Positions 7,205-43,272 of a DNA stretch of 64,000 bases are shown piece by piece. The notes below the pieces were generated by a model. That model was not told the origin of the DNA. It saw only the letters and a list, made by a program, of their open reading frames with translations, and did no database searches. Source of the DNA: an uncultured Spirochaetota bacterium (GTDB taxonomy: Bacteria; Spirochaetota; B62-G9; DRHN01). The stretch lies in NCBI GenBank assembly GCA_964460545.1, contig CAYWUT010000001.1, forward strand, positions 21,320 to 85,319, given 5' to 3'. Every line of letters starts with the position of its first letter. Positions within the stretch are counted from its first letter, which is position 1. Both the position numbers and the translations under genes were made by a program.

Positions 7205-7708
7205 ATGGACCGCTGCCTCATATGCCGGGAAATGAATGAGAGAGACCTCGATGATGTCATGCGCATCGAGAGGGCGGTTTTCAAGCGCCCCTGGACCGAG
7301 GAGTTCTTCAGGCTGATACTCTCGGATATGAACAATTATATCATTACGCTGAGAGATCGCGATCTCATCGGGTACGGCGGCTATCATCTCCTGAAAAACA
7401 GCTCGAATTTTCTTCATATACAAAAAACCTATCCGAGAATCATCCACCTCATCAGCATCGCCATCAACCCCGGCTTTCAGCACAGGGGTTTCGGCACCAT
7501 GCTCATGAATATGCTCATGAATGATGCGCTGTCGAAGAAAGCCGGATACTGCTACCTCGAAGTTCGTCCCTCGAACATGAGAGCACTCTCCTTCTACCAG
7601 TCCCGGTCCTTTTCCATTATCGGCTTCATAGAGAATTACTACGCGCAGGAGCACGAAAACGCCTATGTCATGGGGAAGGAGATTACTCCCAGGCTGAACC
7701 GGTTATAA
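7205..7708 (+). CDS. GNAT family N-acetyltransferase (RimI-like)
   Basis: GNAT acetyl-CoA motif (IAINPGFQHRGFGTMLM) and a RimI-like length of 167 aa. Confidence 0.6.
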   Translation: MDRCLICREMNERDLDDVMRIERAVFKRPWTEEFFRLILSDMNNYIITLRDRDLIGYGGYHLLKNSSNFLHIQKTYPRIIHLISIAINPGFQHRGFGTMLMNMLMNDALSKKAGYCYLEVRPSNMRALSFYQSRSFSIIGFIENYYAQEHENAYVMGKEITPRLNRL

Positions 7709-7911
7709 TCGGCCGCTTGAATTCGCCACCCCATTCACCGTTATACCCGTAATGACGCCTCGATCATTCAGCCCCGTTCGCGGGCGCGGCTGCGGGCGCG
7801 AATGGCGTCCAGTGAATTTCAACCTGTGTGGTATGAATGACGAGATGGAAGGTCCCCGCGGTCAAACCGGCCGGCGGTCATGGATCGCCGGCCGTCTTCA
7901 TGCGGATAAGC

Positions 7912-8958
7912 TCAGGCAACCGTGACCGTTTTATCGAGATACACGTCCTGTATGGTATTGAGGAGCTTGACACCCTCCTCCATGGGACGCTGGAAAGCCT
8001 TCCTGCCTGAGATGAGTCCCGTGCCGCCGGCACGTTTGTTGATAACTGCCGTCCGAACCGCCTGTGCGAAGTCGTTTTCTCCGGAAGCGCCGCCTGAATT
8101 GATCATACCTGCCCTGCCCATATAACAGCCCATGACCTGGTAACGTGTCAGGTCTATGGGATGGTCGGACGTGAGATCGGAATAGATAAGCTTATGGGTC
8201 TTGCCGAACTTGAGGGCATTGAATCCCCCGTTGCACTCCGCCTGTTTCTGCTTGACGATATCGGCCTCGATGGTGGCGCCGAGATGGTTCGCCTGGTTCG
8301 AAAGATCGGAAGCGAGGTGATAATCCGTCCCCTCGTGCTTGAAAGCATTGTTTCTCAAATAGGCCCAGAGAACGGTAAACATTCCGAGACTGTGCGCATA
8401 CTCGAACGCCTCGGTGATCTCGACGATCTGCCTGCTCGATTCCTCGGAGCCGAAGTAGACCGTGGCGCCGACGGCAACAGCACCCATGTTGAATGCCTGG
8501 TCCACGCTCGCGAAGAGAACCTGGTCGAACTTGTTCGGATAGGTCAGAAGCTCGTTGTGATTGATCTTCACGATAAACGGAATCTTAAACGCGTATTTCC
8601 GCGCCACTGAACCGAGCACCCCCAGTGTCGAGGCGACCGCATTGCATCCCCCCTCAACCGCGAGCTTTACGATGTTTTCAGGATCAAAATAGATCGGATT
8701 CGGTGCGAATGCGCTGCCGGCCGAATGTTCGATACCCTGGTCAACGGGCAGTATAGAGAGATACCCGGTTCCTGCCAGACGACCGTGGCTGAATACGGTC
8801 TGCATATTTCTCAGTACATTGGCCGACCTGTCCGTGTGGACCATAACACGCTCTATGAAATCCGGTCCCGGAAGGTGCAGTAAATCCTTCGATACCATGC
8901 ACTTGTGTTCGAGTAGGTTTTTAGCTTCATCTCCAAGTAGTTGTGAAACTGAACTCAT
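7912..8958 (-). CDS. fbaB: class I fructose-bisphosphate aldolase (DhnA/FbaB type)
   Basis: Near full-length colinear similarity to E. coli FbaB (QLLG..A.NLL.H.CM ... LRNMQT...[22 protein letters not shown] ... [16 protein letters not shown] ... [16 protein letters not shown]) and the same ~348 aa length. Confidence 0.9.
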
Positions 8959-33310: not shown

Positions 33311-33382
33311 TTGATAGGAAACGATTTTTTTACTACAATTAACATACCGGTAAAACGTTTACCGTCCGGTAAGCATTTACCG
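33311..33382 (+). promoter_or_regulatory. sigma70-like promoter (TTGATA-17-TACAAT) followed by two tandem palindromic operator-like sites upstream of gspD
   Basis: -35 TTGATA at 33311..33316, 17-bp spacer, -10 TACAAT at 33334..33339. Site 1 CGGTAAA-acg-TTTACCG at 33348..33364; site 2 CGGTAA-gca-TTTACCG at 33367..33382. Confidence 0.45.
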
Positions 33383-33387
33383 TCCGA

Positions 33388-35055
33388 ATGCTGAGAGGAT
33401 TGAACATGAGAAAAGCTGTGATCGGATTTTTTATACTGGCGCTCCTGACAGGGGCGTATCCGCTCCTCGGCCAGAAAGTCTCCCTGAATTTCGACGAGGT
33501 CGACATCGCCGTCTTTCTTCAAACGATGAGCGAGATTACGGGTAAAAGCTTCGTTGTAAGCGACAAGGTAAAGGGCAAGATTAGTTTCGTCTCGTCGGAG
33601 GATGTTCCCGCATCAAAAGTCTATCCCATCGTTCTCTCCATACTGGAAGCGCGGGGATTCCAGGCCGTGCCCGGCAAGGGCGACATCATACACATCTACC
33701 CGGCGCAGGAAGCGCTGAAGATGAGCGGGCGCATACACTACGGCACCCAGCCCCATCCCCCCGGGGACGAGGGCATCATCACCCACATCATTCCTCTCGA
33801 TTACGCGGATGTCAACAGCGTGATCAACGCAATACGTCCCGCTTTCGGCAATGACATCATTCTCACTCCCTACACGCGGATTAACTCCATTATAACGAGC
33901 GGCAATCCGGAAACCGTCAACCTGATCCTCGATATGGTGGGGTACATGGACACCTCGGTCCCGACCGAAAAGTCGGATATACACATATACAACCTCGAGA
34001 ACTCAGACGCCGTAACCATGGCCAAGACCCTGTCGACCCTGGCGAGCAGCATACAGTCGCGGCAGAGCCAGAAGAAACAGAAGACGCCGGAACAAGAGGA
34101 GGATTTCCTCAGCGACCGCTTCAACGTGGTGGCCAACGAGGAGACCAACTCCGTTATCATAATCAGCGCTCCGGATGACTGGGAAAAGATCGAGAATATA
34201 ATCGTTGAGCTCGACATCAAACGCGACCAGGTGCTCGTCGAGGCGCTCATCCTGGAGATAACGCTGAACGACGACCAGATACTGGGATTCGACTGGAACG
34301 TGCTGGTCGATACGGGTGTCGGGGCGGACGTGGTGGCGGGCTCGAATACCGGCCTCATGGCCGAGGGCCTGCAGACGGGCGGGCTTGCCGGGCTGACGGT
34401 CGGGCTTCTCAGTGGAGACCTGCCCAACGTGTACGCGATTCTCAATGCGAACAAGGAGAAGACGAACCTGAAGATCCTCTCCACTCCTGAAATCGTGACC
34501 GTGGACAATCACGAGGCAACGATCGAGATCGGCGAACAGATTCCGTTTCTCACGAGCTCCCGCGTCGATGAAAACAACAACGTGGTTCAGACCTACGATT
34601 ACAAAAACATCGGGATCACCCTCAAGCTCACGCCCCACATAAACAAGAACGGCTACATAACGATGAACATAAACCAGCAGATAAAGAAGATCGTCGAGGG
34701 CACGAGGGCCCTGGAAAACCCGTCGGTCTTCAACCGCGAGGTGACCTCGAAGGTCACGGTCAGGAACGAACGCACCATCGTCATCGGAGGGCTCATCAGG
34801 GACGATATTACGACGAGCGAGCAGAAGGTCCCGATACTGGGGGACATACCGATTCTCGGCCTTCTTTTCAGGAAAGAGGTGGAACAGCGGACGAGAACGA
34901 ACCTCCTCATATTCATCACTCCGCACCTTATAACGGACGATACGCAGATCAGCGAGATCACGGAGCAGAAGAGGCGGCAACAGGAAGATTTCGAGGCGAC
35001 GCAGCAGAAGAAAAAGCTACTCAGGCGGAAGGAAGATGAAAAAGACGGAGACTGA
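33388..35055 (+). CDS. gspD: type II secretion system secretin GspD (PilQ/GspD family)
   Basis: Signal peptide, then N0 domain LNFDEVDIAVFLQTMSEITGKSFVV. C-terminal secretin domain (LSTPEIVTVDNHEATIEIGEQIPF...VIGGLIRD...VPILGDIPILGLLFR). Confidence 0.85.
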   Translation: MLRGLNMRKAVIGFFILALLTGAYPLLGQKVSLNFDEVDIAVFLQTMSEITGKSFVVSDKVKGKISFVSSEDVPASKVYPIVLSILEARGFQAVPGKGDIIHIYPAQEALKMSGRIHYGTQPHPPGDEGIITHIIPLDYADVNSVINAIRPAFGNDIILTPYTRINSIITSGNPETVNLILDMVGYMDTSVPTEKSDIHIYNLENSDAVTMAKTLSTLASSIQSRQSQKKQKTPEQEEDFLSDRFNVVANEETNSVIIISAPDDWEKIENIIVELDIKRDQVLVEALILEITLNDDQILGFDWNVLVDTGVGADVVAGSNTGLMAEGLQTGGLAGLTVGLLSGDLPNVYAILNANKEKTNLKILSTPEIVTVDNHEATIEIGEQIPFLTSSRVDENNNVVQTYDYKNIGITLKLTPHINKNGYITMNINQQIKKIVEGTRALENPSVFNREVTSKVTVRNERTIVIGGLIRDDITTSEQKVPILGDIPILGLLFRKEVEQRTRTNLLIFITPHLITDDTQISEITEQKRRQQEDFEATQQKKKLLRRKEDEKDGD

Positions 35056-36760
35056 GAGAAAGTCTTTTCTGGGGCTCAGGTTCGGCGAGATCCTTCTGCG
35101 AATGGGAAGAATCGACGAAGAGGATCTGGAGTCACTGATCGCCGCACGGAAAAACGTGCGTACCCGGATCGGCGAATTCCTGCTCCAGCGGGGAGTCATA
35201 TCCGAAGACGACGTGCTCCGCACCCTCTCCGCGCAGCTCGGAATAGAGTACAGGGAGGACCTCCTCCTTCGGCACTCCGTCGTCATCGCGGAAAACCTGC
35301 CCAGACACTATATCAAGAAATACAACGTCCTCATCCTGAGCGATTCCGGAGATTTCGTGGAGGTCGCGATAAACGACCCCTTCCAGTTCGATGTGGTCGA
35401 GAATATCAGGGTGCTGACCGGCAAGGACGTGCAGCTCGTCCTCGGCAAGAAGCTCGATATAATGAAGCTCTCGGATATGCTCGCCGGCGAGGACGGTGAG
35501 AGCGCCGACCAGGTCATAGAGGACATGATGGGCGGGGAGGGGGGCATCGAGATACTGGGCGAGATAAACGAGACCGGAGAGGACATGCTCGACCTCGCCA
35601 ATGAAGCGCCCATAATCAAGCTCGTCAACCTCATGATAACCGAGGCCCTCAAATCCCGGGCCAGCGACGTTCACGTGGAGCCGAGCGAAGAGGGGATAGC
35701 GGTTCGGTACCGTATCGACGGTGTCCTCTACAACGTGCTCTCCCCACCGAAGAAATATCAGCAGGCCATCGTTTCGAGAATCAAGATCATGTCCAATCTC
35801 AACATAGCGGAGAACCGGCTTCCACAGGACGGCCGCATAAAGGTCAAGTACGGCACGTCAGACGTGGACATACGCGTTTCCATAGTCCCCTCTGTGGTGG
35901 GCGAGCGCGTCGTCATGCGGCTTCTCGTCAAGGACGAGCGGCGCTTCAACCTGGACAAGCTCGGCATGCGCGAGGACCTCGTGGAGTCGATGCGCTCCCT
36001 GCTCGGATCGCCGAGCGGCATCATCATCGTATCCGGTCCGACGGGAAGCGGAAAGACAACCACGCTCTACGCCGCGATCCGCGAGATCAACACGCCCGAG
36101 CGGAACATCATTACGATCGAGGACCCGGTGGAATACCGGATACAGGGCATCAGCCAGATACAGGTCAACAGCAAGATAAACCTGACCTTCGCGAACGGGC
36201 TCAGGTCCATACTGAGGCAGGACCCCGAGGTGATCATGGTGGGCGAGATACGCGACCGCGAAACCTCGGAAATAGCGATACAGGCCTCGATGACGGGGCA
36301 CCTCGTTTTCTCAACGGTGCACACGAACGACGCGGCCAGCGGAATCGTCCGCCTCATCGACATGGGCATCGAGCCCTATCTCATCGCCTCCACCGTTATC
36401 TGCTTCCTCTCGCAGCGGCTCGTCCGCGTGCTCTGCCCCCACTGCCGCGAGCCGGTCCGGATCGATCCCGAGGTGCTCCGCAGGGAGAATATCGATCCCG
36501 ACAGATTCGAGAAGGATGTGTTCAAACCCGTGGGGTGCACCAAGTGCCAGAACACCGGGTACCACGACCGGGTCGGCATATACGAGATAATCAGGTTGAA
36601 CGACGAGGTACGGCGCATGATCGTCGAAAAGCTCGACGCCGCCACCATCAGGGACCGCTGCATCGAGGCGGGCATGCGCACCATGATGGACGACGGCATC
36701 CAGAAGGTGCTGGACGGCGTCACATCGCTCGAGGAAGTAGTGCGGGTCATCAGGGAATAA
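35036..36760 (+). CDS. gspE: type II secretion / type IV pilus assembly ATPase GspE (MshE-like) with N-terminal MshEN repeats
   Basis: Walker A GPTGSGKTT, Asp box, His box, and tetracysteine CPHC...CTKC. N-terminal T2SE_Nter repeats (LRFGEILLRMGRIDEEDLESLIAARKN; RIGEFLLQRGVISEDDVLRTLSAQLG). Its start overlaps the gspD end by 20 bp. Confidence 0.88.
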   Translation: MKKTETERKSFLGLRFGEILLRMGRIDEEDLESLIAARKNVRTRIGEFLLQRGVISEDDVLRTLSAQLGIEYREDLLLRHSVVIAENLPRHYIKKYNVLILSDSGDFVEVAINDPFQFDVVENIRVLTGKDVQLVLGKKLDIMKLSDMLAGEDGESADQVIEDMMGGEGGIEILGEINETGEDMLDLANEAPIIKLVNLMITEALKSRASDVHVEPSEEGIAVRYRIDGVLYNVLSPPKKYQQAIVSRIKIMSNLNIAENRLPQDGRIKVKYGTSDVDIRVSIVPSVVGERVVMRLLVKDERRFNLDKLGMREDLVESMRSLLGSPSGIIIVSGPTGSGKTTTLYAAIREINTPERNIITIEDPVEYRIQGISQIQVNSKINLTFANGLRSILRQDPEVIMVGEIRDRETSEIAIQASMTGHLVFSTVHTNDAASGIVRLIDMGIEPYLIASTVICFLSQRLVRVLCPHCREPVRIDPEVLRRENIDPDRFEKDVFKPVGCTKCQNTGYHDRVGIYEIIRLNDEVRRMIVEKLDAATIRDRCIEAGMRTMMDDGIQKVLDGVTSLEEVVRVIRE

Positions 36761-36969
36761 AGACCTCATTCCGCTTCTATTCTTTTCTCCGGTATAATAA
36801 AGCAAAAGAGGATAAGGCACTTTTTCACGGGAAAACCATAATCGCCGCTCATTTGATTCGGTTGTTGGATCGACCCGGGACAATTCATCTACATTATTCA
36901 AATATATCCCTCATCAGCTATACATCCGGTAAGGCATCCTTGATGAAACCATTTCAAGGAGGCTACAAG

Positions 36970-37507
36970 ATGAGACCGGCACGATTTGCGTCAATCATGA
37001 TTCTTATGGTAACAGCATCGATTATGGCTGAAGGTTGTGCAACTAAAAAGGCAATTACTCATGATGATGCGTCCAACAGATTGATTGGAAAATGGGTAAA
37101 TACTGACAATCCCGATTCCGGAACTTATGTGGTCCTTACACAAGATGCGTCAGATACTGCGGATTTTTTCTCATCCTTAAAAATTGATATTAACATCAAA
37201 AAAAATATGGCAAGTCCATCATTCGGCTGATGATCCGCTTGCAGCCGGTTACGGAACATATACTATAAGAAAATGCTGGGTAGACTTAAAAGAAAATACA
37301 TTCTGTCAGGCTCTGCTGCAATTTGTAAGTGGGAGCAGATTTTATACGTTATTTCAGCTAGATTCATCTAATGCTATTCTTGAATGCAACTGGTATTATG
37401 GTGGGGAAGAAAGATATCCGGAAAAAATCATTGGGCATGATGTTATCATAGAAGATTTTAGATCGTCTGATGTATCACTTTATTATAATATCTACTACGG
37501 AAGGTAA
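36970..37507 (+). pseudogene. AT-rich lipoprotein gene, frameshifted at an A8 homopolymer (two ORF fragments 36970..37230 and 37184..37507)
   Basis: RBS AAGGAGG, then ATG 36970 and a lipoprotein-type signal MRPARFASIMILMVTASIMAEGC. The reading frame switches at CATCAAAAAAAATATGG (about 37196..37212); the downstream fragment continues in a different frame, which would give a single ~180-aa protein. Low GC relative to the flanks. Confidence 0.45.
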
Positions 37508-37563
37508 AAAGCCACGCCCGCTGAAGAGGAGCGTTCCGCCCCCGGGAAAATCCCTCTGACTTC

Positions 37564-37600
37564 TTGACTCAAATATGTTACACGTGTATTATACGTGTAA
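37564..37600 (+). promoter_or_regulatory. sigma70-like promoter TTGACT-17-TATTAT with inverted repeat TTACACGT...ACGTGTAA flanking the -10 (putative TA operator)
   Basis: -35 at 37564..37569 and -10 at 37587..37592 with exact 17-bp spacing. Inverted-repeat arms at 37578..37585 and 37593..37600. RBS AGGAGG at 37605..37610. Confidence 0.5.
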
Positions 37601-37619
37601 ATAGCAGGAGGTGTGCGTG

Positions 37620-37850
37620 ATGCAAAAAAAACTCACCGTTACCATAGACGAGGAAGTCTATAACGGTTTACGGACCGTCATCGGTCCGCGGAAAATCAGC
37701 CGGTTCATCGAAGAGTTGGTCCGCCCGCATGTTGTCAAGAAGAATATGTATGCTGCCTATAAAGAGATGGCTGCTGATAAGGTCAGGGAATCCGAAGCCC
37801 TTGAGTGGGCCGAAGGTACGGTTGGAGATGTAAGTGATGAAAAGAGGTGA
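37620..37850 (+). CDS. type II antitoxin (MazE/PemI-like partner of downstream PemK/MazF toxin)
   Basis: 76-aa ORF ([33 protein letters not shown]...) immediately upstream of, and overlapping, the toxin gene. An autoregulatory-type promoter/operator lies upstream. Confidence 0.6.
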
Positions 37851-38157
37851 AATATGGTGGGTCAATTTTGATACTTCCGTCGGTGGTGAAATCCGTAAAC
37901 AGCGACCTGCCGTCATTGTAAGTAATGATGCCGCCAACCAGTACCTTAACAGAGTCCAAGTCGTACCCCTGACGAGTAGCGTCGGCAAACTCTACCCAAG
38001 CGAATCATACGTAACATTTCGTGGAAAAAAGACCAAGGCTATGTCCGATCAGATTACAACGGTGAGTAAAAAGCGGCTCATCAATCAAGCAGGATCGTTG
38101 TCCACTACCGATATGGAGGGTATAGGCCAGGCTATAACTGTCCAACTGGATCTTTAA
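37834..38157 (+). CDS. mazF: PemK/MazF-family endoribonuclease toxin
   Basis: Canonical N-terminus [33 protein letters not shown]. 107 aa. Its start overlaps the antitoxin stop (GTGATGA). Confidence 0.8.
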
Positions 38158-38456
38158 GGCGGAACAAGCTGTGCGGAGTGGTTTGTCAACCGTAAAATAT
38201 GATGAAACACCATGAGCCGTTGTTAACCGGCGACGAATTTGTTATTAGGGTGAACTTAGATTTTTTCTTTTATACCACTGGGTAGTCATTAAACATGATA
38301 ATCATTTCTATTTTATTTCATTAATTATTGAAGTTCACCTGCAATAGCGTATCTTATATATGTGAAAGCTTCCCATTATATATATTTCTTAAAACTCGAA
38401 ATTCGCTCTATTAATATGTGAGAAGTCTAAAAGAAAATCGAAGGATATAGGGAATA

Positions 38457-39668
38457 ATGGCGGTCTTCGACTACAGGGCGATAACGGGGGGCGGCAAGCA
38501 GGTGAAGGGGATGCTGGATGCCTCGTCCCTGGAGAGCGCCCGGGAGCGGCTCAGGAGCCGCGGTCTCTTCATACAGTCCCTCACTGAGATGACCAAATCC
38601 GGGTCGGGGGGCCTGGGCCGATCCTTCTCGTTCAGGCGCAAGAGCACGGTCACGACCCAGATCACCCGCCAGCTCGGTTTCCTCCTGAGCGCCCACATCC
38701 CGGTCGTATCCGCGCTTGACGGCGTCATAGACCAGGCCGAGGATGAAAAGACGAAAAAGATGATGATAGACATAAAGGAAAAGATGAAAGAGGGGAAGAG
38801 CGTATCCCAGGCCTTCTCCGATTACCCGGACTATTTCAACAACATGTACGTGAACACGCTGAAGGCGGGCGAGGCGTCCGGCAGGCTCGAGTCCGTTTTC
38901 AAGCGGCTGTCCGAAATGTACGAGCGAAACCAGGCGCTCGTGTCGAAGCTCAGGTCCACCCTTACCTATCCGGCGGTGCTTCTCCTCTTCTCTGTCGTCG
39001 TCATCGTGTTTCTCGTCTCCTTTATCGTTCCCACGTTCGCGAAGCTCTTCGAGGATTTCGGACAGGCCCTCCCCCTTCCCACGAGGGTCCTCATAGGCCT
39101 GTCACAGGCGTTTTCCGCGGGATGGTGGATCATCCTCATCGTTCTGGTGTTTCTCTTCTTATTGGGAAGGAGGATCTACCGCGGAGAACGGGGGCGTGTC
39201 TACCTAGACGGGCTCGTCTTCAAAATACCGGTGGTAAAAAACCTCGTGCTCGATACGTTCAGGATACGCTTCTCCTTTACCATGAGCCTCATGCTCGGGA
39301 ACGGCGTGGGAATAATCGAATCCCTCCAGAATACCGGGCATGTATTCAGAAACAGGCTGTTCACGAACGCAATCGCAGACGCGATTACGAAAGTGAAAAA
39401 AGGTGCGAAACTATCAAAAGCGCTTTCATCGAACGAGGTCTTCAACGCGTCCCTGCTCGGAATGATCCATGCAGGCGAGATGAGCGACCGGGTCTCCGAA
39501 GTGCTTCAAACGATCGGCGACAACCTCGAAATCGATCTCGAGGAACGCATCGGGATACTGACCTCTCTCGTGGAACCCGTCATGCTGCTCGTGATAGGAA
39601 TCATCGTGGGCTTTGCGGTTCTTTCCATTATGCTGCCCATCTTTCAGATAAACCAGATATTCGGCTGA
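38457..39668 (+). CDS. gspF: type II secretion system inner-membrane platform protein GspF (PilC family)
   Basis: Two GspF-type repeats, TM segments, and a typical N-terminus MAVFDYRAITGGGKQVKGMLDASSLESARERLRSRGLFI. 403 aa. Confidence 0.85.
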   Translation: MAVFDYRAITGGGKQVKGMLDASSLESARERLRSRGLFIQSLTEMTKSGSGGLGRSFSFRRKSTVTTQITRQLGFLLSAHIPVVSALDGVIDQAEDEKTKKMMIDIKEKMKEGKSVSQAFSDYPDYFNNMYVNTLKAGEASGRLESVFKRLSEMYERNQALVSKLRSTLTYPAVLLLFSVVVIVFLVSFIVPTFAKLFEDFGQALPLPTRVLIGLSQAFSAGWWIILIVLVFLFLLGRRIYRGERGRVYLDGLVFKIPVVKNLVLDTFRIRFSFTMSLMLGNGVGIIESLQNTGHVFRNRLFTNAIADAITKVKKGAKLSKALSSNEVFNASLLGMIHAGEMSDRVSEVLQTIGDNLEIDLEERIGILTSLVEPVMLLVIGIIVGFAVLSIMLPIFQINQIFG

Positions 39669-39697: not shown

Positions 39698-40603
39698 ATG
39701 AACATACCGTTCGTCAAGATGCAGGGGGCGGGAAACGACTACATTTACCTCGACCTCGTGAAAGAGGAAATCGAACTCGACTTCGCCTCCCTTGCCGCGG
39801 ATATTTCCGACCGGCACTTCGGAGTCGGGGGCGACGGGCTCGTCCTCATCATGAGAAGCGGGGAAGCCGATTTCCGCATGCGGATGTTCAACGCGGACGG
39901 AAGCGAGGCCGAGATGTGCGGCAACGCGGTGCGATGCGTGGGGAAATACGTATACGATTCAGGGTATACCTCCTCAGACACCATCTCCGTACAGACACTC
40001 GCAGGCATAAAACACCTCACCGTTGTCCAAAAAGGCGATGACGCATACATGCACGGCGCATCAATGCTCACGGTCGATATGGGTGAGCCCGTTCTCGACG
40101 GAAAATCCATTCCCGTGAACGTGGATGAAAATCCCGTGCTCGACCTGGAAGTCGAGGGATTCACCGGTACCGCCGTCAGTATGGGCAACCCGCACTTCGT
40201 GATTTTTGTCGACCGGGTAACGGACGATCTCGTTCTGAATCACGGACCCCGAATTGAAGTTGCTCCGGTTTTCCCCAGGAAAGTCAACGTCGAATTCGTT
40301 CAGGTCCTGGATTCCGGCAGCACGGTTCTCCGCGTCTGGGAACGCGGCTCCGGCGAGACGCTGGCATGCGGAACGGGCGCCTGCGCGAGCGTGGTTGCGG
40401 GCGTACTCAACGGGTTCCATTCGAGGGAAGTGTCCGTCAGTCTCCTAGGGGGCGTGCTCCGCATAGCGTGGAATGAAAAAAACAACCGCGTATATTTAAC
40501 GGGACCGGCCGTGGAGGTGTTTCGCGGCACCTTCAATGTACCACGATCCTGTTCTTGCCGTCCTTTTTCGCCCGGTAGAGCGAATCATCCGCCAGCTTCA
40601 TGA
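39698..40603 (+). CDS. dapF: diaminopimelate epimerase
   Basis: Begins MNIPFVKMQGAGNDYIYLD (GNDF/Y motif). Catalytic cysteines MCGNAVRC and LACGTGACA, plus SMGNPHFV. RBS GGAGGA at 39689. The 3' ~70 bp overlap the convergent GGDEF gene. Confidence 0.85.
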   Translation: MNIPFVKMQGAGNDYIYLDLVKEEIELDFASLAADISDRHFGVGGDGLVLIMRSGEADFRMRMFNADGSEAEMCGNAVRCVGKYVYDSGYTSSDTISVQTLAGIKHLTVVQKGDDAYMHGASMLTVDMGEPVLDGKSIPVNVDENPVLDLEVEGFTGTAVSMGNPHFVIFVDRVTDDLVLNHGPRIEVAPVFPRKVNVEFVQVLDSGSTVLRVWERGSGETLACGTGACASVVAGVLNGFHSREVSVSLLGGVLRIAWNEKNNRVYLTGPAVEVFRGTFNVPRSCSCRPFSPGRANHPPAS

Positions 40604-41960
40604 GCTCGTCCATGCTCTTCGTATCCACGGGATATCCGGCGATACCGATGCTGAGCGTCACAGCGATGACCTGTTTTTCAGACGGAACCCTGATCTCCCT
40701 CCCTGAGAAGAGGTCCAGGAGCCTGCGCGCTATCTTCAGGGCCCGCTTTTTTGGGGTTTTCGGAAGTACGATTATGAACTCGTCCCCGCCGTACCGTGCG
40801 GGTATATCGGAGGAACGGACGGAGAGACTCACACTCCTGGCCAGCTCTCTCAGAACAAGGTCGCCCACCTGATGGCCGTAGGTATCGTTGACGATCTTGA
40901 AGTCATCAATATCGAGCATGATGCATGAAAGATGCTCATCGTAACGCCTGGCCTTCTCTATCTCCAGCCGCAATGTCTCCACGAAATGTCTGAAGTTGTA
41001 GAGGCCGGTCATGGAGTCCCGCATGGAGAGGTCCTTGACCTTTTCGTAGAGGATCGTGTTGTGTATCGAAACGGCCAGATGCTTGGATATGCGGACGATT
41101 CGGCCCTCGAAATCGATATGCTCCATTTCCTCAAGACCGGGATCGTTCACATTCAAGACACCGATGGTTTTATCCGCCGATATGAGCGGTACGACACACA
41201 CTTCATTGCTCTTGTACTTTTCCCGCTTTCCCTTCCTGTACCGGGAAGCGCTGAAATCATCAATAAAGAGGGGTTTCTTCGTTTTTAATACCTCGTACAT
41301 GACGCTCTTCTTGTCGATCGGTACAACGAAATTCTGGGGCATATCCTTATGGTTGGAAACGAAGAGCCTGAATTCACGCTCGCCCTCGTCAATGGTAAAA
41401 ATGGTGAAGAGACGGGCTCCGAGAAAAGTTGAAAAACTTTCACCGATAAATGCTTTTTTTAGCTCCGCGTCGAGAAACTGGTTCAGGTCCTGGGTGAAAT
41501 CGGCCTCCTGTGCGAGCATTTCCCTGTTTAGGGAAGCCGAGTCCATAAGCCGGACGAGCTCTTCACCCTTCAGCCGAAGCTCTTCCTCCTCCTCCTTCAG
41601 CTTGAGCATGGAATCGATCTTGGCCGTAAGCACCCGGTAATCGAGGGGCTTCTCCATGAAATCGTTCGCGCCGCACTTGATCGCCCGTATCACGTCCTCA
41701 TCGCGCCGCGAAACGGACAGCGCGATGATCGGAAGACCCGCATGCGGTCCGCCACGCAATTTCTCGCAGACCTCGAAGCCGCTCGTATCTTTCAGCACTA
41801 AATCAACGAGTACGAGACTGATATTATTCCGGGAAAGCAGGGAAAAGGCCTCGGCATCGTCACCCGAGACAAACACCCCGTATCCCCCCTCCTCGAGGTT
41901 CTTTTTGAGGATATTTCGCATGTCGAGGTCATCATCGATGACGAGAATGTTCTTCTTCAT
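40533..41960 (-). CDS. response regulator with REC-GAF-GGDEF architecture (diguanylate cyclase)
   Basis: REC (VIDDDLDMRNIL...LVLVDLVL..SGFEV), central GAF-like region, and GGDEF domain with intact RYGGDEF and upstream RxxD-type I-site context. Confidence 0.8.
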   Translation of the reverse strand: MKKNILVIDDDLDMRNILKKNLEEGGYGVFVSGDDAEAFSLLSRNNISLVLVDLVLKDTSGFEVCEKLRGGPHAGLPIIALSVSRRDEDVIRAIKCGANDFMEKPLDYRVLTAKIDSMLKLKEEEEELRLKGEELVRLMDSASLNREMLAQEADFTQDLNQFLDAELKKAFIGESFSTFLGARLFTIFTIDEGEREFRLFVSNHKDMPQNFVVPIDKKSVMYEVLKTKKPLFIDDFSASRYRKGKREKYKSNEVCVVPLISADKTIGVLNVNDPGLEEMEHIDFEGRIVRISKHLAVSIHNTILYEKVKDLSMRDSMTGLYNFRHFVETLRLEIEKARRYDEHLSCIMLDIDDFKIVNDTYGHQVGDLVLRELARSVSLSVRSSDIPARYGGDEFIIVLPKTPKKRALKIARRLLDLFSGREIRVPSEKQVIAVTLSIGIAGYPVDTKSMDELMKLADDSLYRAKKDGKNRIVVH

Positions 41961-41988
41961 TTATTCCTTCTTATCGTCAGGTTTATGT

Positions 41989-43272
41989 CTATAGAAAGTC
42001 CTGAACCGTAACCCCGCTGACGCTTTCCTCGGAATGCGCCATTATATAGGAAACAGCCGCGTTACCGGTTACGTTTACAACGTTCTCGATCTGGAAGATT
42101 ATGGCCGTAACTCCCAGCAGGATCGTGTATCCCTCGGCCGGCAGCTTGATGACGTAGGAGAGCACAACGGAGAGGAGCACGAGGCTGCCCTCGGGTAATC
42201 CGTCAAGCTTCAAGGTAGAAACGGTGATCAGCAGAACGACGATTATCTGCAGGTAGACGGAGAGGTCGAGCCCGTATGCCTGGGACACGAAAAGGGTCGT
42301 AACTCCCGCCGCGACCGCGCTCCCCGAAAGACTGAGCGCGGTACCGAGACCCGCAGTCAGGCTGAAAACCTCCCTGTCCGCGCCGAGGTTATTCTCCACG
42401 CACTCGACCAGCGTCGGATAGGCCGTATACCGATTTCCCGCGCAGTAGGCGATGATGGCGGCCGGAAGGACCGCGTGTATGAATTTAAAGGGATTGAGCT
42501 TGGTCAGAAAATAGACGAGGAGCGACTGCACGATAAAGACCTGTATTATGGAGCCCGCGGCAATAACGAGGATGAGTTTCAGGAAGGGTAGAATCTGTCC
42601 GAATGTGGAGGATCCAATAGCTGCCCCTATGGATGCGAATATTCCGATGGGAAGAAACTCGAGAACGGTGATAGCCAGGCGATGGAGCGTGTCGTCTATA
42701 CTGACCAGTATGTCAAACAATCCTTCCGCCTTTTCTTTCGCCGCCAGTATACCCATACCCGCGAGAAACCCGGCAAACAGCATGGGAAGGGCCGAAGTGC
42801 TCGATGTGAGCAGCCGGAATACACTGTCGGGCACAATATCGGTGATGAACCGGGCGGTGCCCGGATAATCGATAAGAACGGGAGATTCGAACGCGGAAAC
42901 GGTTATACCGACCCCGGGCTTGAGCACCTCGCCCAGCGTTATACCGATGGCGGCTCCCACAATGGTGAGAACAAGGAAATAACCGATCGACTTTGAAAAA
43001 ACAATGAGAAGGTTCCTGCTCGTTCGCAGATTGATGAACACGCGAATGCTGGTAAAGAAAAGAAGCGGTAGGAAGATGAAGCTGAGCGTCCGCATGAAAA
43101 CCATACCCGCCGTATAGAGTGGAACGATGGCATGCGAGTCGGACCTGAGAAAGCTCCCGATAAGTATACCCGCGACAAGACCGACCGCCATTTTTATCCA
43201 GAGCTTCATCCACCGTACCTCCGCTCCTTGATTTTTGGACATTATCTTAATTGAGGTTGGGGATATTGTCAA
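41989..43272 (-). CDS. dicarboxylate/amino acid:cation symporter (DAACS/GltP family)
   Basis: Multi-TM 427-aa protein with a family-typical hairpin and serine-rich reentrant loop region (GAAIGSSTFG; GLGTALSLSGSAVAAG). Confidence 0.6.
   Translation of the reverse strand: MTISPTSIKIMSKNQGAEVRWMKLWIKMAVGLVAGILIGSFLRSDSHAIVPLYTAGMVFMRTLSFIFLPLLFFTSIRVFINLRTSRNLLIVFSKSIGYFLVLTIVGAAIGITLGEVLKPGVGITVSAFESPVLIDYPGTARFITDIVPDSVFRLLTSSTSALPMLFAGFLAGMGILAAKEKAEGLFDILVSIDDTLHRLAITVLEFLPIGIFASIGAAIGSSTFGQILPFLKLILVIAAGSIIQVFIVQSLLVYFLTKLNPFKFIHAVLPAAIIAYCAGNRYTAYPTLVECVENNLGADREVFSLTAGLGTALSLSGSAVAAGVTTLFVSQAYGLDLSVYLQIIVVLLITVSTLKLDGLPEGSLVLLSVVLSYVIKLPAEGYTILLGVTAIIFQIENVVNVTGNAAVSYIMAHSEESVSGVTVQDFL

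Follow-up and report, generated by a model that had tools for sequence, protein, structure and literature searches.

A strain-variable islet with a mazEF-type cassette at the gspE-gspF junction of an uncultured Spirochaetota bacterium

The genes for the ATPase (gspE) and the inner-membrane platform protein (gspF) of the type II secretion system (T2SS) usually adjoin each other in bacteria, and a locus where they stand well apart raises the question of how the intervening DNA came to be there and what has become of the genes on either side. We examined such a locus in a stretch of 64,000 nt (hereafter the window) from an uncultured Spirochaetota bacterium (GTDB B62-G9; DRHN01), which covers positions 21,320-85,319 of the forward strand of contig CAYWUT010000001.1 in assembly GCA_964460545.1. 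In the window, 1,696 bp (36761-38456) separate the two genes. We consider it highly probable that this DNA is a lineage-specific, strain-variable islet, inserted exactly at an ancestral overlapping gspE/gspF junction with duplication of 9 bp, assembled in at least two steps and carrying a selfish mazEF-type toxin-antitoxin (TA) pair.

The insert and its borders

The flanking genes, the borders and the main parts of the insert are:
35036-36760, + strand: gspE, T2SS ATPase, left flank of the islet (TIGR02533, 653.9 bits, cutoff 630; also PF00437 and PF05157)
36752-36760, + strand: left copy of the repeat AGGGAATAA, the last 9 nt of gspE including its stop codon
36761-38448, + strand: inserted AT-rich islet, short haplotype, recognised by its composition and missing in the related lineages L007, L090-L093 and L114
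38214-38448, + strand: AT-rich spacer upstream of gspF, 98% identical in the two haplotypes, with a weak terminator-like hairpin at 38218-38235
38449-38457, + strand: right copy of AGGGAATAA, its final A being the A of the gspF ATG
38457-39668, + strand: gspF, T2SS inner-membrane platform protein, right flank of the islet (PF00482, 169 bits)

All genes of the islet, a broken lipoprotein gene followed by a mazE-mazF pair, lie on the + strand, co-oriented with gspD, gspE and gspF. An initial annotation had described about 1.7 kb of AT-rich DNA here, ending in an AT-rich spacer of some 300 bp before gspF, and had suggested a look at GC skew and codon usage. The measurements agree: GC content is 0.413 in the insert against a window mean of 0.551 (standard deviation 0.043 over 500-bp windows) and 0.33 in the spacer, which spans 299 bp, and the lowest-GC stretch of the entire 64 kb falls inside the insert. 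At third codon positions (GC3), the lipoprotein frames (0.29-0.33), mazE (0.55) and mazF (0.47) are far below gspD, gspE, gspF and dapF (0.67-0.82). Two other low-GC stretches of the window, at 12.5-13.2 kb and 46.0-46.9 kb, proved to be ordinary intergenic regions. The same arrangement, including a frameshift and an A8 tract in the lipoprotein gene, recurs at >99.5% nucleotide identity in six independent metagenome assemblies (ENA, JGI, Logan) and is thus no assembly artefact. An Rfam scan of 36600-38600 (E ≤ 1) and a comparison of the islet proteins with the PADLOC defence models gave no match.

Relatives show the insert to be derived. The closest other lineages, Spirochaetota by their record titles, have GspE proteins 67-76% and GspF proteins 57-61% identical to those of the window and keep the gene order dxr…gspD-gspE-gspF-dapF-GGDEF regulator-SDF transporter. 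Within this order gspE and gspF overlap by 1 nt in L114 (GCA_964521865.1) and are 3-7 nt apart in L090-L093 and 97 nt apart in L007, and it is these tight or overlapping junctions that mark the insert as derived. Among 64 loci from many phyla that hold both genes, the median gap was 33 bp and 49 had a gap of at most 150 bp, in line with the initial statement that the two genes are generally adjacent; 14 of the 64 had a gap of about 1.1 kb and represent pilB-pilT-pilC clusters.

The borders carry the direct repeat that the initial annotation, having proposed an insertion, suggested looking for. A perfect 9-bp direct repeat, AGGGAATAA, flanks the islet and is the sole direct repeat of at least 7 bp shared by the two border zones. 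Its right copy restores the ancestral TAATG overlap (…AGGGAATAATGGCG…), the uninterrupted junction of L114 being CGGGAATAATGCC, and in the longer of the two haplotypes described below the right border repeat is CGGGAATAA, with 8 of 9 positions matching. The repeat thus looks like a target-site duplication of the TAATG stop/start junction, a border feature expected of transposons. A generic repeat search with a minimum length of 10 missed this repeat as well as the 8-bp repeats of the cassette borders; both were found by reading the junctions. A collection of 5.8 billion proteins held no GspF relative between 65% and 99% identity, so that the insertion cannot be dated more finely.

The mazEF cassette and its copies in other genomes

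The right-hand part of the islet is occupied by a compact unit:
37533-38165, + strand: mazEF cassette, about 633 bp, self-contained, delimited by DNA identity to copies elsewhere and by its sharp ends
37564-37600, + strand: putative mazEF promoter/operator, -35 TTGACT at 37564-37569 and -10 TATTAT at 37587-37592
37620-37850, + strand: mazE-type antitoxin gene, 76 aa, with a ribosome-binding site (AGGAGG) 8 nt upstream and a 14-nt overlap with mazF
37837-38157, + strand: mazF/pemK-type toxin gene, 106 aa from its ATG or 107 aa from the GTG at 37834

The toxin matches PF02452 with 91.3 bits (cutoff 23.1; E = 5.5e-26) over profile positions 1-108 of 109, and its closest solved structure is, at full length, that of M. 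tuberculosis MazF9 (5hjz; E = 6e-18). Of the conserved motifs, QRPAV is identical in the two proteins and VVPLTSS stands against VVPVTSN; we take these positions to be those of the catalytic Arg29 and Thr52 of E. coli MazF. Homologues at E ≤ 1e-10 number more than 6,500, dozens of them 80-92% identical, including proteins labelled as Deltaproteobacteria or Desulfobacteraceae. For the 76-aa antitoxin, sub-threshold matches were obtained to NF050104 (23.4 bits, cutoff 65; E = 6e-5) and RHH_6 (E = 0.026), and there was no match to PDB sequences at E ≤ 1. The mazE gene call is identical in 10 assemblies, mazE accompanies the toxin gene in every cassette copy, and in every copy the pair of 76 and 106 aa has the layout of a type II TA system, with a small antitoxin gene upstream of and overlapping the toxin gene. 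These observations uphold the initial reading of an antitoxin-toxin pair with a PemK/MazF toxin.

The initial annotation had also reasoned that the cassette would need a promoter of its own, or read-through. Directly upstream of mazE lies TTGACT-17-TATTAT, which agrees with the consensus at 10 of 12 positions, is the best promoter-like site of the region and stands 28 nt before the mazE ATG. Two adjacent palindromic sites, TTACACGTGTA and TATACGTGTAA (37578-37600), overlap the -10 element and are conserved in all five contexts in which we found the cassette.

Besides the window, these contexts are four mutually unrelated ones (DNA identity to the window in brackets):
L107: between enoyl-CoA hydratase and DUF362 genes (87.9%)
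L109: after a leucyl aminopeptidase gene, before a TacA-type TA (87.3%)
L116: between OsmC and UPF0102 genes (81.2%)
L125: after priA (83.6%)

All four alignments end at 38167/38168, 10 nt past the stop codon, and begin between 37545 and 37579. In the other genomes the GC content of the cassette (0.43-0.48) matches that of its flanks (0.42-0.49), whereas in the host of the window it is anomalously low, and the host GspE shares only about 48% protein identity with deltaproteobacterial GspE. The DNA identity of 81-88%, together with the sharp ends and the unrelated contexts, indicates that the cassette was acquired horizontally and recently; judged by its composition, the donor was probably a lower-GC bacterium. 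A plasmid search with the cassette returned three weak, partial matches (70-77%) to other PemK genes only, a phage search returned none, and the cassette was not found among IMG/VR viral contigs by operator DNA pattern, MazF protein or MazF alignment.

In the window an 8-bp inverted repeat marks the two ends of the cassette, with GTTCCGCC at 37533-37540 and GGCGGAAC at 38158-38165, the latter directly after the stop codon. The repeat of L116, GTTCTGCC/GGCAGAAC, is perfect as well, with one compensatory change relative to the window. Elsewhere, 7 of 8 positions match in L109 and 6 of 8 in L107, L125 has no left copy, and in the long haplotype (L095) the right copy is degenerate; the comparison covers five contexts. 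No target-site duplication was seen outside the repeats in the window, L107, L109 or L116. A reading of GTTCYGCC as a genome-wide element of the repetitive extragenic palindromic (REP) type was dismissed, with 6 matches in the window against 5.8 expected by chance. It is possible, though we think it unlikely, that the cassette of about 633 bp is a mobile element in its own right, one that has GTTCYGCC…GGCRGAAC at its ends and, being non-autonomous, is moved in trans by unknown machinery between distant phyla and into intergenic regions or stop/start junctions. The movement of solo chromosomal TA modules has long been noted but has no mechanistic explanation, and such an element would supply a defined vehicle for it. 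We treat the border repeat as a lead and not as a result; it is the only element of the locus that could lead somewhere new, and its conservation in many copies, if confirmed, would point to a way in which solo TA modules are mobilised.

The L125 context has a structure of its own. At 2284-5320 of L125, and also in L126-L128, the mazEF cassette and an AAA_14/DUF4143 ATPase gene directly follow a full-length priA, and a 192-aa fragment corresponding to the PriA C-terminal domain comes next. This pattern is as expected for an element that integrated in the 3´ end of priA and carried a replacement end.

Haplotypes, lipoprotein decay and selection

The left-hand part of the islet and the segment behind the cassette differ between members of the species:
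36970-37507, + strand: lipocalin-like lipoprotein pseudogene, read from 36970 to 37230 (86 aa to a premature stop) and then in the +1 frame to 37507
37170-37180, + strand: sites of inactivation, with one surplus C at 37170 that shifts the frame and, at 37178-37180, a TAA stop of the authentic frame where the intact allele has CAA
37198-37205, + strand: A8 tract, identical in the intact allele, where it is read in frame (alignment with that allele)
38166-38213, + strand: segment specific to the short haplotype, replaced in the long form by about 2.5 kb with an Lnt-like CN_hydrolase gene and an RHH/PemK pair

Two haplotypes of the islet exist in the species of the window, a short one of 1.7 kb (six assemblies besides the window) and a long one of 4.3 kb (four assemblies), in which gspD, gspE and gspF are 98.7-99% identical in DNA to those of the window. 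The long islet, about 2.6 kb larger, carries an intact lipoprotein gene of 179/188 aa and the same mazEF pair at 95% DNA identity, and in addition encodes a 530-aa Lnt-like carbon-nitrogen hydrolase with an N-terminal membrane domain and a second, RHH/PemK pair; it keeps the same 243-bp spacer before gspF. The short haplotype is not a plain deletion of the long one, as a clean junction is lacking and the short form has 48-54 bp of its own. The long haplotype L095 also contains 71-bp inverted copies, 79% identical, at 7663-7733 and 7890-7960, one arm of which takes in the 3´ end of the second mazF-like gene and about 40 nt beyond it, and the other the sequence just upstream of gspF; the window has only this second arm, at 38346-38416.

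The lipoprotein gene had been described as interrupted at the A8 tract. Broken it is, but the tract itself is intact, and the damage lies elsewhere: in addition to the frameshift and the nonsense codon, both shared by all six short-haplotype assemblies, a 145-bp deletion at 37497/37498 removed the original 3´ end and replaced the C-terminus. The authentic frame, …DFFH(P/F)QK(L/F)(I/V)LTS…, is fixed by the intact allele and by the outgroup proteins P0002 (54%) and P0003 (50%). Between the haplotypes the gene has a ratio of nonsynonymous to synonymous divergence (dN/dS) of about 0.8, compared with 0.03-0.12 for the gsp genes. Its product has a lipobox, MRPARFASIMILMVTASIMAEG-C in the window and V-G-S-C in homologues, with a Cys that is invariant in the three closest proteins (P0001-P0003). 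A word-indexed search found just three close family members, and a profile search about 200 representatives, typically of 145-160 aa, for which there is no Pfam model. No resemblance was found to the T2SS pilotin fold of the GspS/PulS or AspS type. The closest comparison among bacterial lipocalin-like lipoproteins is Tp0751 (pallilysin) of Treponema pallidum, which likewise has an N-terminal signal peptide, a lipobox Cys and a spirochaete source; it differs in that identity is about 12%, in that the family described here lacks a Pfam model and also occurs as a C-terminal domain, and in that the window gene is dead. In the latter setting, the domain ends BlaR1/M56-type signal-transducing peptidases (P0180, P0232, P0241, P0202), where the lipocalin-like domain, presumably extracytoplasmic, replaces the usual penicillin-binding sensor domain.

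Outside the species, one neighbouring lineage, L111 (GspE 74%, GspF 65% identical), also has an interrupted junction, filled by a different island of 7.4 kb. This encodes proteins of 399 and 150 aa, a pyrroloquinoline quinone (PQQ) propeller protein and a DUF3795 protein and, on the opposite strand, an M24 peptidase and a glycerophosphotransferase. Its first two genes score 111 and 103 bits against a profile of 105 sequences of the lipoprotein family and so belong to the same broad family, yet at just 22-26% identity to the window lipoprotein they are not orthologues. The island borders, CGCGAATAA and CTCGAGTAA, form a repeat with 7 of 9 positions matching. In trees of GspD, GspE, GspF and DapF the relative closeness of L111 and L114 to the species of the window was not settled; the junction may have split once, long ago, with its content changing later, or twice independently. 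Relatives with the same genes in the same place, which the initial annotation had named as evidence for an ancestral arrangement, were found within the species only.

Comparison of the short with the long haplotype gave the following values of synonymous divergence (dS) and dN/dS:
gspD: dS 0.035, dN/dS 0.07
gspE: dS 0.051, dN/dS 0.03
gspF: dS 0.028, dN/dS 0.12
mazE: dS 0.086, dN/dS 0.20
mazF: dS 0.156, dN/dS 0.26

With a dN/dS of 0.12, gspF has kept its constraint despite the loss of tight coupling to gspE. The mazE and mazF reading frames are intact, that of mazF in all haplotypes, and both cassette genes are constrained as well (dN/dS 0.20-0.26), yet they are 2-5 times more diverged than the flanks. 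As to the transcription of gspF, the islet genes share its orientation and no more than a single weak terminator-like hairpin intervenes, which makes read-through from the gspDE or mazEF promoters plausible; in L111 the genes just upstream of gspF run on the other strand, so the clade evidently tolerates independent transcription of this gene.

Assembly of the islet, alternatives and gene setting

The initial annotation had envisaged a single small mobile or addiction cassette within the secretion operon. What we find is composite, an islet that varies between strains and took at least two steps to build, and in it the 633-bp mazEF unit alone bears the signature of a discrete transferred cassette. 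Insertion would have struck the stop/start junction …AGG GAA TAATG GCG…, duplicating 9 bp of the target. The first step would have brought AT-rich DNA with a lipocalin-like lipoprotein gene of a family typical of spirochaetes, which later decayed to a pseudogene in the short haplotype, and the second, recent step would have added the mazEF cassette from a gene pool common to distant lower-GC bacteria. Transcription of mazEF would start at the TTGACT/TATTAT promoter, of the sigma-70 type, and the antitoxin, alone or with the toxin, would repress this promoter at the double palindrome; the overlap of the two genes suggests coupled translation. By analogy with MazEF and Kis-Kid, depletion of the antitoxin would free a MazF-type endoribonuclease to cleave RNA and arrest growth, steps that have been described for these and related TA operons (PMC3879964, PMC7167474). 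The most likely role of the cassette would be selfish persistence, or addiction, with stabilisation of the islet as a side effect. Horizontal acquisition is documented for chromosomal TA systems, which differ from one isolate to the next and may be maintained as selfish genes (PMC7167474; PMC3879964). As gspF remains under purifying selection it must be expressed, whether by read-through or from a weak promoter in the spacer.

Several observations sit less easily with this account. No curated family model recognised the antitoxin above threshold, and neither the islet open reading frames nor the repeat search nor the reading of the junctions revealed a transposase, an integrase or islet-terminal inverted repeats. 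A promoter scan found no + strand promoter-like site of at least 9/12 in the gspF spacer, leaving gspF with no convincing promoter there. The dS of mazF (0.16) is 3-5 times the flank values, and single-nucleotide polymorphisms (SNPs) within the short haplotype cluster in the 3´ half of the gene (37951-38130), with 11 of the 16 differences of L005 falling within 180 bp. Since L111 has lipoprotein-family genes first in its island and a 7/9 repeat at its borders, the first split could be older, and by the same likeness the lipoprotein could be connected in some way with the secretion genes. Some of the SNPs in the 3´ part of mazF match alleles of other genomes, and the cluster could reflect allelic exchange with a wide pool of cassettes or, equally, co-assembly of near-identical cassettes from other organisms present in the same samples. 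Mutagenesis by a diversity-generating retroelement was rejected as its source, the changes not being adenine-specific.

Such a link to secretion forms the core of another explanation, in which the lipoprotein would be a T2SS accessory protein (pilotin-like) or a substrate, and a co-opted TA promoter would make gspF expression follow TA autoregulation and stress. A lipoprotein of the same family does come first after gspE in two lineages, the species of the window and L111, every islet gene is co-oriented with gspDEF, and in both haplotypes a co-oriented mazF-like toxin gene lies right upstream of the gspF spacer, followed by the weak terminator-like hairpin only. We nevertheless judge this explanation quite improbable: of the 11 sequences of the species, 7 have the lipoprotein gene as a pseudogene, while constraint on gspD, gspE and gspF is strong, its closest homologue (54%) is found in an unrelated context without gsp genes, the L111 copies are too distant to be orthologues, no gene of this kind lies in the gsp cluster of relatives whose junction is tight, and the two genes right upstream of gspF in L111 lie on the opposite strand. 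The broken lipoprotein gene might alternatively be a phase-variable contingency locus, switched on by slippage from A8 to A7. Removal of one A would join the frames into a 178-aa protein with about 9 residues changed (SSLKIDINIKK for HPQKLILTSKK), but the tract has a constant length in all 10 other assemblies and is in frame in the intact allele, the real frame change, at 37170, lies 28 nt upstream of it, the authentic frame also has a nonsense codon, the 145-bp 3´ deletion is present besides, and the dN/dS is about 0.8. This explanation has very little to recommend it.

Equally faint is the prospect that the gspE-gspF junction is a hot spot for site-specific integration, integron-like or dependent on a recombinase, at which cassettes are exchanged. 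The content of the junction does vary, across the two haplotypes and L111, chromosomal integron arrays typically carry TA cassettes (PMC3879964; PMC7167474), and the mazEF cassette adjoins other TA modules in L109 and L107. Against this, no integrase or recombinase was found within 8 kb on either side in any assembly, the repeat search found no repeated recombination-site motif between the islet genes, GTTCYGCC occurs in the window at chance frequency, and the cassette ends GTTCYGCC and GGCRGAAC fit neither the inverse core (RYYYAAC) nor the core (GTTRRRY) of an attC site, so that an integron cassette is not what we see. That the arrangement is ancestral and was lost by the relatives, or is an assembly chimera, we regard as next to impossible. 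All sequences of the species carry an islet, and nothing further speaks for this; the islet is missing in six outgroup lineages that themselves differ from one another, the 9-bp duplication restores the ancestral junction, the composition is foreign to the host, and ten assemblies, independent of one another and made from different samples with different pipelines, agree.

The components of the islet, a MazF/PemK TA module, a lipocalin-like lipoprotein and a target-duplicated genomic islet, are all of known kinds. The TA pair compares best with MazEF9 (Rv2801c/Rv2801A) and with the MazF/PemK/Kid family at large (E. coli mazEF/chpA, pemIK, kis-kid), sharing an end-to-end match of the toxin with MazF9, an antitoxin-first order of overlapping genes and a putative palindromic operator over the promoter (PMC3879964). 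It differs in an antitoxin that matches no MazE of the AbrB, CopG or DUF3018 type above threshold and in a toxin that belongs to a very large, unstudied environmental subfamily (>6,500 members, many >80% identical). Like the chromosomal TA islets of E. coli and other bacteria (PMC7167474), the locus varies between close strains in the presence and alleles of its TA genes, lies between conserved housekeeping genes, has no recognisable mobility genes and has decaying neighbours, all compatible with selfish persistence. Unlike them, it sits inside a secretion cluster, exactly at an overlapping stop/start and with a clear 9-bp target duplication, and its cassette recurs at 81-88% DNA identity in genomes of very different composition and context, at least one of them labelled Deltaproteobacteria. 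With the TA cassettes of chromosomal (super)integrons it shares a small, self-contained unit of promoter, antitoxin and toxin with sharp ends, beside other TA modules in some genomes, that plausibly stabilises adjacent dispensable DNA; intI and attC are lacking, the ends carrying the 8-bp inverted repeat instead. While current views of TA systems and of type II secretion are unchanged by the islet, this one locus shows all stages of colonisation, from the empty site and the 9-bp duplication to two haplotypes, a decaying passenger and readable cassette borders, and it demonstrates that a tightly coupled gspE-gspF pair can be split by 1.7-7.4 kb without loss of constraint on gspF.

The secretion genes themselves form a minimal gspD-gspE-gspF cluster followed by dapF, conserved across the clade (window, L091, L114). 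In the window its first gene is:
33388-35055, + strand: gspD (TIGR02517, 421.5 bits, cutoff 351)

GspD and GspE exceed the NCBIfam equivalog cutoffs, whereas GspF, at 354.6 bits, falls below that of TIGR02120 (424) and passes the Pfam cutoff only, so that its place in the T2SS core rests on PF00482. A motif scan found no prepilin or pseudopilin N-terminal motif across the whole 64-kb window; pseudopilins and other T2SS parts are thus encoded elsewhere or absent, and the system is locally incomplete. The N-terminus of GspE has a c-di-GMP-binding motif of the MshEN type (NF053729, 43.9 bits, cutoff 38), and three genes downstream of gspE, on the opposite strand, lies a response-regulator/GAF/GGDEF diguanylate cyclase gene (40533-41960) whose synteny with the gsp cluster is kept in the relatives L112 and L114. 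This combination of motif and conserved neighbour suggests control of the secretion ATPase by c-di-GMP. Members of the species also differ from one another by dense substitutions and small indels at the start of the GGDEF gene (~41960; 41931-42002), by a 15-bp in-frame indel in dapF at 40047 and by an 18-bp indel upstream of gspD (33358-33375).

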